Under the pieces are notes generated by a model. The model searched no databases. It was not told the origin of the DNA and worked only from the letters and a program-made list of their open reading frames with translations. 64,000 nt of DNA from contig OY820591.1 in the NCBI GenBank assembly GCA_963555985.3, forward strand, positions 704,001 to 768,000, written 5' to 3'. Shown here piece by piece: positions 1,530-56,175 of this stretch. The position numbers were made by a program, and so were the translations under genes. The stretch comes from Dehalococcoidia bacterium (GTDB lineage Bacteria > Chloroflexota > Dehalococcoidia > Bin125). Every line of letters begins with the position of its first letter. Position 1 is the first letter of the stretch.

Positions 1530-4370
1530 ATGGGACGATTCAATCTCCTGCCGCGGTTGGCGGCCGTCGCCCTGGCGACGGTACTGGCTGTGGTGGTGGG
1601 GGCGACGGCGCTCTCACAGCAGGCCCCCGGTTTCGTCGACGTGACCGTCGACGGGGCGATGGCGGGCGACACGATTGCGGTGCCGGGCATGGGCACGTTC
1701 GGCACGGCCGACGCCGATGGCAGCGTGACCGTGACCGTGCCTGAGGCTACGGCCGACAGCCTCAAGGCGATGGCCAACCCGTTCACCGTGAATGGCGAAA
1801 CCGCCGACGGTTCGTGGGACGGCAACACCTACAGCATCGCGCAAGAGGCCGAGGAACCGGCGGAAGAGCCGGCCGAAGAGCCGGCCCCAAGCGGCGCGAT
1901 GACCGACCCCAACCCGCCTGCGGTGAGCGTCGGTCTGAGCCTCAGCTTCCCGCACGACGCGGACGCGACCATCCCCTCGGGCACCAGCACCAAGTTGCAG
2001 CTCGCGCTGAGCGCCAGCTCCTCGCTGAGCAACGCCAGCTACAGCTTCACCTACGACAACGACGCGCTGGGCAACCTCAGCGTGACCACCGGCTTCCTGC
2101 TGCAGGTCGGCGGCGACACCGCTGACAGCGCCGCCCCGGCGCTGGTTCCTGGTCCGTCGGCCGGCGTGATCAGCGTGGACGGCCTGCACGTCGTCGTGCC
2201 CGCCGGCACTGCCGACGGCGCCGTCGCCAACATCGCCGCTGCGGTTGAGGTCGGCGTGACGGTCAACTACACCGACGCCAGCGGTCAAGAGTGGACGTTC
2301 ACTCAGGCCGCCGCCACCGTCACCGGCAGCGCGGCCCTCACGGTCGGCACGGTGCTTCCGGACGCCAATTCGATTGGCTTCGGCTTCAGCGCTGGCATGT
2401 CGGACCACATCCTGCAGATGGCTGGCTCGACCGGCTTCACGCTGAACATCCACAACGCCAACGGTCACCCGTCGCAGATCTCCTCGATCAGCTCGATCAT
2501 TGTCAGCACCGACAACGGTGTGGTCAGCTACACCGGCACGGCCCACGACGACATCATGGGCGGCGTCGACACCGACTGCGGTGGCAACAGCCCGACCTGT
2601 GAGTTGGAACCGGTCAAGGGTTCGCCCTGGCCGCTCAAGGACGGTCAGCTGACCTTCGGCCTGACCGGCGCGACGATGGGCACGTCCAACGTGACGGTCG
2701 CCGTGATCACGCGAGCCGGCGCGGCGATGAATGGTTCGGCATCGGTGGTCGTCTACGGCCCGGCATCCACGCTCATGGTCCAGTTGAACGACCGTGAAGG
2801 CAACCTCCACTACCGCCCGACCGCGGGCGACGACCGCGACATGATCGCATTCACCGTCCGGGCGCATGACGCCAACGGCGTTGCGGTAGGCGTGCCGGCG
2901 CTGTCCGGCAGCGGCACGGGACTGTCCGTGAGCGCTGACAACAGCAGGGCGCTCAACCAGTTGACGCGCTCGCCAATGAGCCGCGGCATCACCGTGATGA
3001 CCGCTGGGATGTTGACCCCGGGCGACGCCTTGGTGAACGTCAGAGGCGGCGCGGCCAGCGGCAGCGGCAGCTTCATTGTTGCCGGTCCGGCGGCCACGAT
3101 TGACGTGTCTGTGGACAACGAGAACCCGACGAAGCTGAGCGACATCGTGCGCGCTGGGGCCAACGTGACCGACGCCAACGGCAATGCCGTGGCCAAGGGC
3201 ACGGTGCTCGAGATTCGCGCGCCCGACCTCGACGGCGACGGCGACAACATCTTGGCGCGTGCGCTGAACCAGCTTCAGCACACGGACCACATGGGCGACT
3301 CGACCGAGCAGGCGTTCGTGACGATCGGCGCCGGCGATGCGGTCGTGACCGCGTGGATCATTGACGCACACGGCGACGCGAACGGCGTCGTGGGCACCAA
3401 GGTTGTCAACAGCACAGCTCTGAGCACCGCCGAGGAAGCTGCAGCGGCGAAGGCCGCGGCTGAGGCTGCGCAGGCTGCAGCTGACGCTGAAGCAGCGGCG
3501 CAGGCCGAGGCTGAAGCAGCGGCGCGGGCCGAGGCTGAAGCAGCGGCAGCAGCGCAGGCCGAGGCTGAAGCAGCGGCGCAGGCCGAGGCCGAGGCTGAAG
3601 CAGCGGCGCAGGCCGAGGCTGAGGCCAAGGCAGCCGAAGAGGCTGAGGCCGCCCGGATCGCCGCCTTCGTGGAGGCGGTCAAGGCCGCGCTCGAGGCTGA
3701 CGCAGCGGCGGAAGCCGCCGCCGAGGCAGCAGCCGCTCAGGCTGCCGAGGAAGCTCGCGCCGCCGAGGAAGCCGCCGCAGCGGCCGAGGCTGAGGCCGAG
3801 GCCCAGCGCCAGGCCGAATTCGACGCAGCGGTCGAGGCCGAAATCGAGCGCCGCGCTCAGGCAGCCGCCGAGGCCGAGCGCCAGGTCGCTGAGGCAGCCG
3901 CCGCCGCTGAAGCCGAAGCTGCCGCGAAGGCCGCTGAGGCAGCCGCCGCCGAGGCCGCCGAGGCCGCCCGCGTGGCGGAAATCGAGGCAGCCGTCCAGGC
4001 CGCGCTCGACGCCGAGGCCGCCGCTGAGGAAGCTGTGCGCCAGGCCGCTGAAGAGGCAGCAGCCGCCGCCGCCGCCGAAGCTGCCGCCGCGGCCGCTGAA
4101 GCCGCCGCCGCCGCCGCGGCCGCCGCTGAAGCCGCCGCCGCTGAAGTCGCCGCCGAAACCGCGCGACTGTCCGGCGTGAGCGGCTTCGCCAGCTGGCTCT
4201 CCAGCACCCCGACCAGCGCCAGCGCGCTCTTCGCCGAGCTCGACCCCGCTGCCATCCACCTCTGGAACGGCTCCACCTGGGTCCGCTACTCGGTCGTGGA
4301 CGGGGCGATGGTACCCGGCTCGGTCGACTTCGAGATCATGCGCGGCGACGTGCTCTACATCGGCAGCTAA
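1530..4370 (+). CDS. Secreted surface protein: signal peptide, Ig-like domains, ~240 aa Ala/Glu helical stalk, C-terminal Trp-rich domain
   Basis: N-terminal hydrophobic signal (LAAVALATVLAVVVGATALS), Ig-like segments shared with paralogs, AEAEAAA repeats, and C-terminal GFASW...IHLWNGSTWVRY...PGSVDFEIMRGDVLYI. Confidence 0.8.
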   Translation: MGRFNLLPRLAAVALATVLAVVVGATALSQQAPGFVDVTVDGAMAGDTIAVPGMGTFGTADADGSVTVTVPEATADSLKAMANPFTVNGETADGSWDGNTYSIAQEAEEPAEEPAEEPAPSGAMTDPNPPAVSVGLSLSFPHDADATIPSGTSTKLQLALSASSSLSNASYSFTYDNDALGNLSVTTGFLLQVGGDTADSAAPALVPGPSAGVISVDGLHVVVPAGTADGAVANIAAAVEVGVTVNYTDASGQEWTFTQAAATVTGSAALTVGTVLPDANSIGFGFSAGMSDHILQMAGSTGFTLNIHNANGHPSQISSISSIIVSTDNGVVSYTGTAHDDIMGGVDTDCGGNSPTCELEPVKGSPWPLKDGQLTFGLTGATMGTSNVTVAVITRAGAAMNGSASVVVYGPASTLMVQLNDREGNLHYRPTAGDDRDMIAFTVRAHDANGVAVGVPALSGSGTGLSVSADNSRALNQLTRSPMSRGITVMTAGMLTPGDALVNVRGGAASGSGSFIVAGPAATIDVSVDNENPTKLSDIVRAGANVTDANGNAVAKGTVLEIRAPDLDGDGDNILARALNQLQHTDHMGDSTEQAFVTIGAGDAVVTAWIIDAHGDANGVVGTKVVNSTALSTAEEAAAAKAAAEAAQAAADAEAAAQAEAEAAARAEAEAAAAAQAEAEAAAQAEAEAEAAAQAEAEAKAAEEAEAARIAAFVEAVKAALEADAAAEAAAEAAAAQAAEEARAAEEAAAAAEAEAEAQRQAEFDAAVEAEIERRAQAAAEAERQVAEAAAAAEAEAAAKAAEAAAAEAAEAARVAEIEAAVQAALDAEAAAEEAVRQAAEEAAAAAAAEAAAAAAEAAAAAAAAAEAAAAEVAAETARLSGVSGFASWLSSTPTSASALFAELDPAAIHLWNGSTWVRYSVVDGAMVPGSVDFEIMRGDVLYIGS
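3430..4160 (+). repeat. Low-complexity coding tandem repeats (gccgaggctgaagcagcggcgcag-like units) encoding an Ala/Glu helix
   Basis: Near-identical 21-27 bp units at 3490-3625 and Ala/Glu-rich repeats onward. Confidence 0.8.
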
Positions 4371-10380: not shown

Positions 10381-10546
10381 CACGCAGCCGAACTTAGCGC
10401 TGACTCGAGTGAGAACGACAGTTGGCGCCGAGGCGGGGAACCCACCATACGAGGGGTGAAGCGGGCGGACGAGCGAGCCGTCACGGCTTGATCGCACGCC
10501 GGCCGATGACCTGAACATCGAACCCGACAGCTGACCCCGCAGGCAT
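10381..10546 (+). ncRNA. Cyclic di-AMP (ydaO/yuaA) riboswitch
   Basis: Conserved blocks in the correct order: gccgaac, extended P2 hairpin, gcggggaaccca, ggggtgaa, cgatg/catcg stem, cgaacccgacagctgaccccgcaggc. gcgggg (10433-10438) pairs with ccccgc (10535-10540). Lies in the 5' UTR of the KamA-family gene. Confidence 0.88.
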
Positions 10547-10672
10547 GTTCAGGGCGGACGCAGGACCAACGCGGGCGTGATCGAGCCTGGCTCGCCACGA
10601 TCGCCCTTCCTCCGCCGAGCGGCCGCGGGCTGCGCAGACAGCCGCCAATTCTCGCCTGAGGAGGAGTGATCG

Positions 10673-19838: not shown

Positions 19839-20189
19839 TCAGGGCAGCGCCTCGAGTTTGTTGATGAAGCGACGCACATCGCCGAGGCCGCGCGAAACTA
19901 CGTCGGGGTTGTCCCAGTCTTCGTAGAAGTTGACGTGGAGCAGATTTGCACTGCGGAACAGGAGGCGAATTTCGTCGTCGCTCGTTTCGTCGACCAGCCG
20001 CGTGACGGCCCGATACAGAGCTGCGTGTGTTCGATGCGGCCAGTCTCGTTGTTCGCAGACGGCTTTGACCGCCTGCGCGGCCGCTCCCCAGCCCTTCTCC
20101 GAAGCCTGGCGCGTATCGCCCTCGGCGAGTTCGGACTCAGCCTGGGCGAGTAGGTGGAGGCTGGCCTCTTGGTAGGTCTGGGTAGTCAT
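19839..20189 (-). CDS. PaREP1-family (HEPN-like) protein
   Basis: QASEKGWGAAAQAVKA and LHVNFYEDW. RBS aggag. Close paralog of 12525..12875. Confidence 0.82.
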   Translation of the reverse strand: MTTQTYQEASLHLLAQAESELAEGDTRQASEKGWGAAAQAVKAVCEQRDWPHRTHAALYRAVTRLVDETSDDEIRLLFRSANLLHVNFYEDWDNPDVVSRGLGDVRRFINKLEALP

Positions 20190-20351
20190 GGGTGATGCTC
20201 CTGGGCCTCAGTGTAGGCGGGTGGGCTTGTCGCACAGGCGGGGTGCATTGTCCGAATTGCGGGCACGGTAGGGACTGGGCGGTCGCGATTCGCGGCCTCG
20301 CGGGGCTGTGAGAAAAAAACGAGGTGGGGTTTGCCGCTTGCGGTCGGGGGA

Positions 20352-20708
20352 TTACGGCGGCTCTTCCTCTTCCTCGAGGCTGTCGTCGTCGTCCGGCAGG
20401 GGCACGTCTTCGCCGCGCATCAGGGCCACGGCGATGGCGTGGGGATGGAGGTGGAGTTCCTTCTTCTGCTCGGGCGTAAGGGGTGCTTCGGGCAGGCGGG
20501 GGGAGTGGTTGGCTCGGGGTTTGGGCGCGGGTTCGGGATGGGGTTCGAGGTCGAGGGCGTGGTGGATCTCGCGGCTCTTGGAGTTGGAGGGGGAGAGTTC
20601 GCGGATGAGGAGGGCGAGCGCTTTGATGCGGACGTGGCCGGCTTCGTCGGAGTGGGCGAGTTGGCCGACGCCGGTCATGCTGGACTGGTAGGTGTAATCG
20701 AAGGGCAT
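20352..20708 (-). CDS. Hypothetical 118 aa protein, possible terminase small-subunit-derived; paralog of 55471..55842
   Basis: MPF.Y.YQS.M.GVG.LA...RELSP.N.KSREIHHAL...PHPEPAP...MRGEDVPL shared between the two copies. RBS aaaggaa. Confidence 0.7.
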   Translation of the reverse strand: MPFDYTYQSSMTGVGQLAHSDEAGHVRIKALALLIRELSPSNSKSREIHHALDLEPHPEPAPKPRANHSPRLPEAPLTPEQKKELHLHPHAIAVALMRGEDVPLPDDDDSLEEEEEPP

Positions 20709-20826
20709 GGCGGGGTGTTCCTTTCTTGGGAACCTACGTTTTGGATAGGTGAGTTTATATGTTCTGATGTTCGGGTTGCAAACTGGTTGGGTGTGTTGTG
20801 GTTGTCGTTGGGGTGGTTTGGGGAGT

Positions 20827-21128
20827 CCCCCCCTCTGCCTACGGCATCTCCCCCCGCAAGGGGGGAGAGGGGATAAGGGAGGGGGAAGGTTGGTAGTGCT
20901 CACATCGAGATACCCGCGACGGAGCGCGGGTATGACGGAGTTTTTGGCAGGTATAGCGGTGTTGCGGGCGTTTGTGCTGGGTGTGGTGCTTCACCCCCTC
21001 TGTCACTTCGTGACATCTCCCCCCAAGGGGGAGATTTTGGGGAGGTGGGGTGAGGGTTGGGTACTGGTCACGGCGAGATACCCGCGACGGGGCGCGGGTA
21101 TGACGGAGCTCTGGGCGCGGGTATGACG
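20827..21128 (-). repeat. BIME-like array of alternating REP family B and family A palindromes
   Basis: B at 20827-20868 and 20994-21033 (cccctctgtcacttcgtgacatctccccccaagggggag), A at 20906-20937 and 21074-21105, half-A at 21113-21128. Confidence 0.85.
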
Positions 21129-27739: not shown

Positions 27740-27817
27740 TGGGGTGGACGGTGGGATTCGAACCCACGAATACCAGGGCCACAACCTGGCGCCTTAGGCC
27801 TCTAGGCGACGCCCACC
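27740..27817 (-). tRNA. tRNA-His (GUG) with encoded G-1 and CCA
   Basis: Reverse complement G-GTGGGCG...ccagg-ttGTGgc-cctgg...GGTTCGAATCCC...CGTCCAC-C-CCA. Confidence 0.95.
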
Positions 27818-29319: not shown

Positions 29320-29396
29320 GCGCCCGTAGCTCAGTGGAGTAGAGCACCAGGCTTCGGACCTGGGGGTCGGGGGTTCGAGTCCCTCCGGGCGTGCCA
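29320..29396 (+). tRNA. tRNA-Arg (UCG)
   Basis: GCGCCCG-TAGCTCAGTGG..AGAGC-ccagg-ctTCGga-cctgg...GGTTCGAGTCCC..CGGGCGT-G-CCA. Confidence 0.95.
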
Positions 29397-55067: not shown

Positions 55068-55470
55068 GGTCAGCCAGTCTAAGGCGAAGCGCGCCTTCCT
55101 CTCCTCCACACCACAAAGAGAGCCACCCCTCCTCTCCAAACCTCCTCCCCCCTCTCCCCAGATCCCCCTTCCCACCTCCGGTCATACCCGCCCCAAACAA
55201 GTTCCGTCATACCCGCGCCCCGTCGCGGAGCCTGTCCCCGCGCAGGCGGGGATCACTCGCCGTGACCAGCACCCAACCCCCAAACCCCTTCCTCCCTCTC
55301 CCCCTTGAGGGGGAGATGTCACGAAGTGACAGAGGGGGTGAAAACGCCACAACCCTCAAGAACCCACATGCGCCTTCCGACAACCACGACACACTCCCAA
55401 ACTACCCACCCGAACACCCATCCATATAAGATCAAGTGTCCTTCATTGAGCGAGAGAGGAACCCGGACCC

Positions 55471-55842
55471 ATGCCCTTCAACTACAGCTACCAGTCCGCC
55501 ATGGCCGGCGTCGGCGAGCTCGCCTTCTCCAAGCGCGAACCCGGCTACGTCCGCGCCCAAGCCTTCGCCATCCTGCGCCGCGAACTCTCCCCGGCCAACC
55601 CCAAGAGCCGCGAGATCCACCACGCGCTCGGCATCGCACCCCACCCCGAACCCGCGCCCCGGCCCAACCATTCCCCCCACCTGCCCGAAGCGCCGCTCAG
55701 TCCTGAGCAGCGGAAGGACTTCCACCTCAACCCGGACGAGTTCTTCGAGGCCTACGAAAAGATCGACGCCATCATGCGCGGCGAAGACGTCCCCCTGAGC
55801 GAGGAGGAAGAAAGCACGGAAGAAGAGGATGAACCACAGTAA
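55471..55842 (+). CDS. Hypothetical 123 aa protein, possible terminase small-subunit-derived; paralog of 20352..20708
   Basis: High similarity to copy 1, RBS gagaggaa, and overlap with the start of a terminase-like ORF. Confidence 0.7.
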   Translation: MPFNYSYQSAMAGVGELAFSKREPGYVRAQAFAILRRELSPANPKSREIHHALGIAPHPEPAPRPNHSPHLPEAPLSPEQRKDFHLNPDEFFEAYEKIDAIMRGEDVPLSEEEESTEEEDEPQ

Positions 55843-56092
55843 TACCCACGCCCCGGAGCGGCTGAACTTAGCGTTCAGCTCCTCCCACGACGCCCGCCGT
55901 TTTTTTCCCACGGACAGACAGCGCGATCTCTATAGCGCAGTCGCTGCCGTGCCCAATCCCGGCCTCGCCTTGGTCGGGTACGGCGGCGCCATGGGCGGCG
56001 GCAAGACCCGCGCCCTGGCCGAACTCGCCCAAGCCCGTGCTCACCTCCCTCACAGTCCCCCTCCCCCCTCTGCGGGGGGAGATGTCACGTAG
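55829..56092 (+). pseudogene. Truncated phage terminase large subunit N-terminus
   Basis: PTDRQ adenine-binding-like motif followed by hydrophobic strand and YGGAMGGGKT Walker A. Runs into a REP about 10 codons later. Confidence 0.6.
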
Positions 56093-56175
56093 AGTCTGCC
56101 CCCGCGAAGGCGGGGGGACAGAGGGGAGCGCAACCGGCACAAACGCTCCAACCAGCACAGCCACCCCACAACACT

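Follow-up and report, generated by a model that had tools for sequence, protein, structure and literature searches.

According to the common view, terminases serve only viruses, whose DNA they package, and are found together with capsid genes. The window, i. e. the whole 64,000-nucleotide stretch of Dehalococcoidia DNA that was analysed (G000:C1:704001-768000), contains two loci in which REP hairpins, a leader and a small ORF precede what looks like the beginning of a terminase gene. What are these loci, how did they come to be there, and what might a terminase do in a chromosome? The original prediction saw in them a terS-like gene that had been captured without its phage and was spread together with the REPs. 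We have followed these questions through the source genome (3.33 Mb, 65% G+C, 11 contigs, 96% complete) and through named Dehalococcoidia and Chloroflexota MAGs as the relatives for comparison.

The two loci of the window

Both loci are present where they had been predicted, and they are collinear over the REPs, the leader, the ORF and a T-run (Table 1). Their pairwise alignment has a mean column identity of 73%, and the likeness of copy 1 to copy 2 is far above chance level. The downstream ORF, of which copy 1 had been said to hold a mere trace, is indeed reduced there to degenerate terL codons ~1-42 that end at 20262 with ...CCCTACCGTGCC (20262-20273). In copy 2, the frame of the terL stub stays open to 56092 via non-terL and REP sequence, resulting in an 87-aa ORF (55829-56092) that overlaps the small ORF and reads ...LVGYGGAMGGGKT. 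An Rfam scan of the window gave no match at the element, its matches being two tRNAs and a c-di-AMP riboswitch elsewhere. For hairpins in the 3'-UTR, judged by eye, the covariation is not convincing.

Table 1. Features of the two loci; coordinates are positions in the window.
Feature	Coordinates	Strand	Remarks
Copy 2 REP1*-type hairpin (CCGTCATACCCGCGCCCCGTCGCGG ... CTCGCCGTGACCAGCACCCAACCC)	55204..55279	+	nested 24-nt palindromic mini-REP at 55229-55252
Copy 2 REP-2, inserted between hairpin and leader	55298..55351	+	core GGGGGAGATG
Copy 2 leader (CGACAACCACGACACAC ... CCCGAACA ... CATATAAG ... GAGAGGAAC), 5' of the ATG	55378..55470	+	kept in all 28 copies
Copy 2 small ORF (123 aa), terS-like, no HTH, N-terminus of type B	55471..55842	+	
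Copy 2 stub of terL (codons 1-67, Walker A at 55982-56008)	55829..56029	+	terL homology stops at 56029
Copy 2 composite REP-2 with nested mini-REP	56064..56128	+	~35 nt past the end of terL homology
Copy 1 REP array, 5' of the leader	20888..21106	-	REP1* 21054-21106, REP-2 20988-21034, REP1* 20888-20938
Copy 1 REP-2 directly 5' of the leader	20825..20872	-	
Copy 1 leader, conserved	20709..20807	-	
Copy 1 small ORF, 118 aa and stop, type-A N-terminus	20352..20708	-	ATG 20708, stop 20352-20354
Copy 1 terL remnant, degenerate (codons ~1-42), T7 run at 20308-20321	20262..20351	-	

A family of about thirty terminase units

The earlier count of two copies has to be revised: the real number is about thirty, of which the window itself contains only two. 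By tblastn (E<=1e-12), the small ORF is present 28 times in the genome, 27 times on C1 and once on C9. Since the contigs C2-C11 are strain variants of C1 regions (95-99% identical), the C9 copy is an allele of the locus at 421721. In 26 of the 28 copies the ORF is intact with 116-126 aa; one further ORF is divergent but open (108 aa, 2321710) and one is degenerate (677827). A second subfamily, outside the window, has two copies (~C1:775.6k and 905.6k), each with an ORF of ~113 aa (L031/L032 type) and a terL remnant that is cut at Walker A.

The full-length terS-terL parent that had been sought was found five times in the same genome: in five copies (C1: 107040, 664751, 1690375, 1954540, 2030941) an intact terL of 472-473 aa with zero stops lies downstream of the small ORF. 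What was captured is thus the terS-terL pair rather than terS by itself. The complete unit of ~1.9 kb consists of a REP-type hairpin, an AT-rich leader of ~95 nt, an ORF of 118-120 aa and the overlapping terL, whose start precedes the small-ORF stop by 14 nt; the same overlap is seen in copy 2 of the window. Homology between the five long copies stops just past the terL stop (...CTCTAACCCATGCCC), giving a minimal common unit of 1,867 bp, and the two ORFs are the only coding content of the element, which is devoid of integrase, replication and capsid genes. The most frequent form is a shorter one: 19 copies (18 loci and the C9 allele) share the exact 3' end ...CCCTACCGTGC[C/T] at about terL codon ~42 and then continue into unique DNA. 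Copy 1 of the window belongs to these 19 terS-only short forms, as its terminus is the common one. That the same breakpoint is found at so many loci indicates that the truncated form was itself copied. Copy 2 of the window, in which terL is cut after Walker A and a REP comes next, and the copy at 2481430 are intermediates of their own with longer terL stubs; copy 2 is probably a product of separate decay. Taken as a whole, the family comprises ~30 copies of an amplified, phage-derived, terminase-only unit together with its non-autonomous terS-only derivative.

The large terminase

In copy 2, terL codons 1-67 are kept with Walker A as the last motif, and complete ATPase and nuclease domains are absent. 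Over 67 aa, this stub shares 81% identity with the N-termini of full-length terL copies in the same genome, and a second comparison with terL gave 71% for residues 1-69. A PHROG search with the stub alone gave phrog_979 at an E of 0.31. For a full-length copy (L001:2884-4302), Pfam reports Terminase_6N with 33.3 bits (cut-off 22) and Terminase_3 with 32.1 (cut-off 23.2), and PHROG reports phrog_2 (E 1.6e-26) for residues 51-440, spanning both domains; the PBSX-type model of NCBIfam stayed under its cut-off (38.5 vs 105). Hence, the stub was correctly recognized as the 5' end of a terminase gene: its full-length homologues match terminases in Pfam and PHROG, not a non-terminase P-loop family. 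All 14 homologues that were aligned have the same residues at G50-T60, D155/E156, D285, D351 and D429-D435, which we take to be the positions of Walker A, Walker B and the Asp residues of the nuclease. Terminase_6N is matched in the genome by the five terL copies only.

At least 199 homologues of this terL were found at E<=1e-10. The 120 that are listed are 55-97% identical and lie, several per genome, on contigs ranging from ~1 kb to the Mb scale, and every source name among them that gives an organism is Chloroflexi or Chloroflexota. The identity to terminases of cultured phages is just 23-28%, and the nearest viral terL genes, on the IMG/VR contigs L044-L047, are 42-45% identical.

The small ORF

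The proteins encoded by the small ORFs have in common an N-terminal domain of ~50 aa, which is joined by a variable linker to an acidic tail with the terminus ..DEP[PQL]. The small ORF has no match in Pfam, PHROG, NCBIfam or PADLOC, and Pfam also has none for the ORFs of 10 relatives; the gathering score of Terminase_2 (PF03592) was reached neither by the small ORFs of this genome nor by those 10. A profile search found 62 representatives of the family, of which 0/62 matched a TerS PHROG.

A link to small terminases is provided by intermediates. In 11 of 14 loci of the relatives, a small ORF is located upstream of terL, and it is either of the type found here or of an 'LRAWELL..GMF' type. The profile of the small-ORF family (A5) and that of the relatives' terL-adjacent ORFs of the 'LRAWELL..GMF' type (A3) align in hhalign with 80.5% and an E of 1.3e-5, which makes the two ORF types homologous. 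A3 matches the Terminase_2 protein P0256 (Pfam, 1.9e-20) at an E of 5.5e-8 and is placed by hhalign on its residues 63-122, past the HTH (98.1%), and A5 aligns weakly to the same region (37%, E 3.6e-4). The alignments to P0256 begin at about residue 63, and the Pfam-matched part of this protein is residues 1-84. In an AF2 model of the small protein (pLDDT 69.8), residues 7-39 form a helical hairpin that is predicted with confidence; a disordered linker rich in proline comes next, then a helix of low confidence and the acidic tail. The best Foldseek match of the model in the PDB has a meaningless E of 3.3, sequence-profile searches of the PDB with A2 and A5 gave nothing useful, and with A3 the top small-terminase matches (E 0.07 and 0.15) ranked under a designed protein. 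From the chain of intermediates we conclude with moderate confidence that the small ORF is a terS that lacks the N-terminal DNA-binding domain. Thus, what stands of the original terS-like assignment is the terS position, the homologues adjoining terL and, with that same confidence, the indirect relation to Terminase_2; a direct family match was not obtained. A pac site inside terS, recognised by the unit's own TerS, becomes less plausible, because the small protein would have no DNA-binding domain.

Selection and gene conversion

Both genes of the unit evolve under constraint. The variable sites are distributed over the three codon positions as 32/15/58 in type A (18 copies) and 20/15/35 in type B (8 copies), the mean pairwise dN/dS of the small ORF is 0.49, and every length difference between intact ORFs is a matter of whole codons. 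For the five terL paralogues, dN/dS is 0.10-0.28 at a dS of 0.12-0.31; from these dS values the duplications are old, and they would also fit a function retained by the host. When the observed 544 substitutions were placed in simulations, all 26 ORFs stayed open in 0/2000 runs, a signal that is overstated by the non-independence of the copies. Neutral decay with frequent frameshifts, the outcome that would have spoken against a functional element, is therefore not what we see.

Moreover, the small proteins are put together in mosaic fashion: there are two types of N-terminus, four cassettes in the middle and three tails. In two alleles of one locus, the flanks are 99-100% identical and the ORF cassette is swapped. 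Identical flanks around different cassettes are the result of recent gene conversion. The copies are under purifying selection and mosaic through gene conversion.

REPs, leader and insertion sites

The association with REPs that had been described for the two loci extends to the whole family: REPs lie upstream of every copy, and the unit is always REP-embedded. A variant of the REP1 hairpin with the tail ..GTGA(CC/GC)A..ACC(C)AACC is nearly element-specific: 27 of the 35 tail-variant hairpins are co-oriented with a copy and <=450 nt upstream of it, the total of REP1 hairpins being 123. The REP-2 core GGGGGAGATG has 210 occurrences in the genome, and in many copies REP-2 stands between hairpin and leader. 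Matches to the REP1 core pattern number 174 in G000, 287 in G007, 20 in G013, 2 in G006, 1 each in G027 and G034, and 0 in the other 20 genomes. The four genomes with >=2 REP1 core matches are all terL-positive, yet three terL-positive genomes have 0, so this is no test of an association.

The copies are intergenic and mostly immediately 5' of co-oriented host genes. With gene calls from our own GC-frame heuristic, the gene that follows has the orientation of the element at 22 of 27 loci. Among the short or truncated loci, 18 of 22 are upstream of a co-oriented gene; the start of the downstream ORF, as called, ranges from slightly within the element to 277 nt past its end. The leader contains an AT-rich TTGCAA...TATAAA-like patch, recognised by eye only, and a consensus scan found no sigma-70 promoter in either leader of the window and no terminator after the ORFs.

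At the site of copy 1, the ECH-P116-thiolase synteny is kept in two sister-genus genomes, G006 and G013. The ECH-P116 spacer is 1,029 nt in G000 vs 31 nt in G006 and ~84 nt in G013, and these short spacers at the syntenic site imply that the block of REPs plus element is an insertion in the G000 lineage. The six uppP loci of relatives that were compared, with ~1.5 kb on either side, gave no counterpart to the site of copy 2, as uppP does not adjoin the CoA-transferase gene there. Five sequencing runs are listed, none of them RNA; three have most of the locus, all from one study. In the Logan contigs of these three runs no strain-level empty site was seen; the contigs break at REPs, and where they are joined, one REP meets another over 20-35 nt per side, with other letters in between, which is not evidence of an empty site. 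Across the copy-2-specific stretch 55761-56007 the coverage equals the flank depth. By eye, neither terminal inverted repeats nor a clear target duplication were seen at the junctions, the 5' boundary being blurred by REPs. Both the left junction and the right end of the long form repeatedly show the motif CCAGC..AACCC, which is also part of REP tails. A search of the genome for transposases gave 0 Y1_Tnp/RAYT, 0 IS110 and a single TnpB-type ORF, located elsewhere.

Phage partner genes and distribution among relatives

The original observation that the window contains no other phage gene extends to the whole genome, as far as the Pfam portal, capsid and protease models and the ORFs of the nearest phages are concerned. 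Pfam searches had 0 matches to Phage_portal, SPP1_portal, Phage_capsid, Peptidase_S78 and Phage_cap_E; Portal_Mu had no match either, a result that is uninformative as the control likewise matched nowhere. When 225 ORFs from the eight viral contigs with the nearest terL were compared with the genome, the matches were terL, antisense shadows and one unrelated 135-aa ORF. The terS-terL pairs of the relatives (3 loci, +/-10 kb, 50 ORFs) have cellular neighbours with one exception, a sub-cut-off XhlA-like match. A gene transfer agent requires capsid, portal and tail genes in the host genome; with no match to these capsid and portal models or to structural ORFs of the nearest phages, the genome would not be classed as encoding one.

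The terL clade is present in 15 of 301 sampled genomes of the class, all from one family: it occurs in 14 of the 17 other family members and in 0 of 283 genomes elsewhere. Within the family, a genome has between 0 and 5 terL genes. In the genus g8 there is one copy at a syntenic place, with L011, L012 and L014 sharing the upstream gene.

Discussion

We lean towards the view that both loci are members of a mobile, phage-derived, terminase-only element, whose non-specific terminase would work on the procapsids of an infecting phage. The complete unit comprises a hairpin, a leader, a putative small terminase devoid of a DNA-binding domain and an intact, translationally overlapping terL. A derivative without terL past codon ~42 went on being copied and is thus a non-autonomous form, now with 19 copies. 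The copies came to lie in intergenic DNA and exchange segments by gene conversion, their ORFs being held open by selection. For the spread, we suggest that the hairpin end is used by a nuclease acting in trans, with TerL as the sole candidate encoded by the element. The small protein and TerL might form a terminase without sequence specificity that needs the procapsids of an infecting phage, and packaging would then be diverted to host DNA, resulting in interference and/or transduction. This capsid piracy is purely what we infer. It is unlikely, to our mind, that the element is a transposable element with a terminase as its only enzyme, or that the ~30 units are genome-wide packaging starts for the capsids of infecting phages. 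As a terminase transposon, TerL and the TerS devoid of a DNA-binding domain would mobilise the complete unit, the terS-only derivatives and perhaps the abundant nested REPs; with the units as packaging starts, the capsids of any infecting phage could carry host DNA.

Several features of the family can be accommodated without mobility. It is conceivable, with a rather small probability, that the pair is a domesticated host system, i. e. a defence system, a DNA-processing system or a gene transfer agent with undetectably divergent structural genes, which is inherited vertically and whose copies arose passively by REP-mediated ectopic recombination. The confinement of the pair to one family (14/17 other members vs 0/283 outside), the single syntenic copy in genus g8, the strong selection on terL, the REPs that flank every copy and an architecture of the small protein that resembles the TerS of a gene transfer agent (PMC6854486) all agree with such a system. 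However, 19 copies break off at exactly the same 3' position and the DNA behind it is unique, hence there is no downstream homology arm for recombination; moreover, the terL number varies from 0 to 5 per genome inside the family, capsid, portal and protease genes were not found with the Pfam models and the ORFs of the nearest phages, and there is no PADLOC family match. The position of 18 of 22 short or truncated loci 5' of a co-oriented gene, the lack of a terminator after the ORF and the AT-rich leader patch seen by eye bring to mind a portable promoter or upstream-ORF cassette, the short form being kept for driving or regulating the downstream host gene and the phage ancestry being incidental. 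We regard this as improbable, since the consensus scan found no sigma-70 promoter and since such a cassette leaves unexplained why ORFs of 118 aa with acidic tails are open in all these copies and why their cassettes are exchanged. Finally, most copies lack terL and stubs are seen at copy 2 of the window, at C1:2481430, at ~775.6k and at ~905.6k, as might be expected of inert debris, i. e. of functionless, inactive sequence left to decay after prophages had integrated repeatedly or after an old duplication. The signals of selection largely refute this reading and leave it a very slim chance: in 26 of 28 copies the ORF of 116-126 aa is intact, with in-frame length differences and a codon-position bias of 32/15/58, the five intact terL genes have a dN/dS of 0.10-0.28, the breakpoint is identical in 19 copies, and there are no other phage genes near the copies.

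If the loci are indeed parts of a terminase-only element, how do they relate to known systems? The small terminase gp1 of the gene transfer agent RcGTA (Sherlock et al. 2019, PMC6854486) begins with oligomerisation/coiled-coil helices and has no DNA-binding domain. The protein studied here is similar: a small protein that opens with helices, has no predicted DNA-binding domain, and continues with a linker and a C-terminal segment beside terL. Like the gp1/gp2 terminase of RcGTA, the pair is host-resident and phage-derived. In RcGTA, the terminase is single-copy and heads a cluster of capsid, portal and tail genes, whereas here no structural genes were found and there are ~30 dispersed copies, most of them without terL. 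The pac-type phage modules on the IMG/VR contigs L044-L047 have a homologous terL and the same order of small ORF and terL, with overlap. However, in L044, L045 and L047 the upstream phage ORF has a putative Terminase_2-type N-terminal HTH (assigned by eye) that the chromosomal units do not have, and in L045, L046 and L047 the phage terL is followed by ORFs of portal size (710-735 aa, judged by size only), again in contrast to the chromosomal units.

SaPI/PICI, with their TerS, and cf-PICI are phage satellites that re-aim or block packaging. The satellites known have several kb or more, are single-copy and excisable, and carry integrase and replication modules. Our unit differs from them in having two genes, many copies and neither an integrase nor a replication module. 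Small satellite proteins that act on the terminase step are also known from PLE (Gpi and GpsAB), where Gpi is reported to act on the phage TerL (bioRxiv 10.1101/2024.04.22.590561). The element shares its chromosomal location with SaPI/PICI, cf-PICI and PLE; the small terminase-step proteins of satellites and their dependence on helper capsids are the parallel that we propose. Among mobile elements, MITE/IS pairs and REP/BIME with RAYT are non-autonomous elements that have autonomous masters. As in these pairs, there are few complete and many shortened copies with precise ends, an intergenic location, hairpins and an element-free orthologous site. Unlike MITE/IS pairs, the family has no known transposase family, terL being the sole large ORF, and no inverted terminal repeats were seen; unlike MITEs, the short copies retain an intact, selected ORF.

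In the library of texts that was searched, we found no account of terS-terL units that are solitary and multi-copy. In this genome, purifying selection maintains such a pair by itself; it multiplies in a chromosome and is outnumbered by its own terS-only derivative. If capsid piracy is true, the unit would be smaller than any satellite-like element described to our knowledge, and genes could flow between sponge- and marine-type Chloroflexota in a GTA-like manner. Should TerL be what moves the element, transposition would have a chemistry not seen before. Either way, ~20 host genes are now preceded by one common leader and small ORF and could thereby be joined in a single regulon. Finally, matches to 'phage terminase' in the annotation of these MAGs are not prophage markers.

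Truncation of the terL gene around the Walker A motif

The terminase-only element is accompanied in the genome under study by a second subfamily, represented by two copies that lie outside the window (see the table). Its ORF of about 113 amino acids contains ..NGPPYIQHQATNALARILGLY.. and an acidic tail, and it resembles the small ORFs of L031 and L032, two terL-bearing loci of relatives. Each of the two ORFs is followed on its 3' side by a terL remnant that is broken off exactly at the Walker A motif. The same region is affected elsewhere: independent terL truncations, i. e. those at window positions 55829-56029 and at 2481430, 775.6k and 905.6k of contig C1 as well as all short forms of the element, are concentrated at codons ~42 to ~70, surrounding Walker A. 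This clustering could reflect a hotspot of insertion or recombination, or selection against longer partial terL genes.

Interruptions of a different kind are present in terL homologues from other MAGs, several of which (P0015, P0036, P0057, P0077 and P0081) hold insertions of 40-90 amino acids in the nuclease domain. The inserted segments resemble REP sequence in translation (..PSPPLAGGDAAGRGG..), and the alternatives are REPs that were inserted in frame and read-through pseudogenes.

REP turnover, neighboring genes and strain variants

A 24-nt palindromic mini-REP (AGCCTGTCCCCGCG.AGGCGGGGA) sits nested within the loops of larger REP hairpins, which shows that REPs were inserted in layers in a genome that lacks a RAYT. 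G007 and G014 both belong to the genus g8, but 287 exact matches to the REP1 core are present in G007 and none in G014, so that REP families turn over rapidly within a genus.

The 116-aa gene directly downstream of copy 1 belongs to a multi-copy family with 14 matches in this genome and 4-17 in each of seven relatives, frequently in tandem. In genus g7 and one named MAG, terL is directly followed by one to four tandem genes whose products of 76-134 amino acids begin with or include MAAMNPILRLRRAFRS... One ORF of L031 has a sub-cut-off match to XhlA.

Finally, all ten small contigs (C2-C11) are strain variants of C1 regions with 95-99% identity, which accounts for the 7.5% "contamination" figure of this genome and allows allele comparisons with C1.

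Coordinates of the features
Feature	Location	Strand	Remark
Second-subfamily copy	C1 ~775,440-775,930	-	outside window
Second-subfamily copy	C1 ~905,510-906,030	-	outside window
Nested mini-REP sites	window 55229-55252; window 56064-56128; L001 (full-length copy) 2190-2225		
116-aa gene	window 19839-20189	-	directly downstream of copy 1
Genes for MAAMNPILRLRRAFRS.. proteins	L007 2899-3969; L008 757-1434; L009 874-1104; L030 11390-11683		adjoin terL 3' end
c-di-AMP riboswitch	window 10416-10561	+	
tRNA gene	window 27743-27816	-	
tRNA gene	window 29320-29393	+
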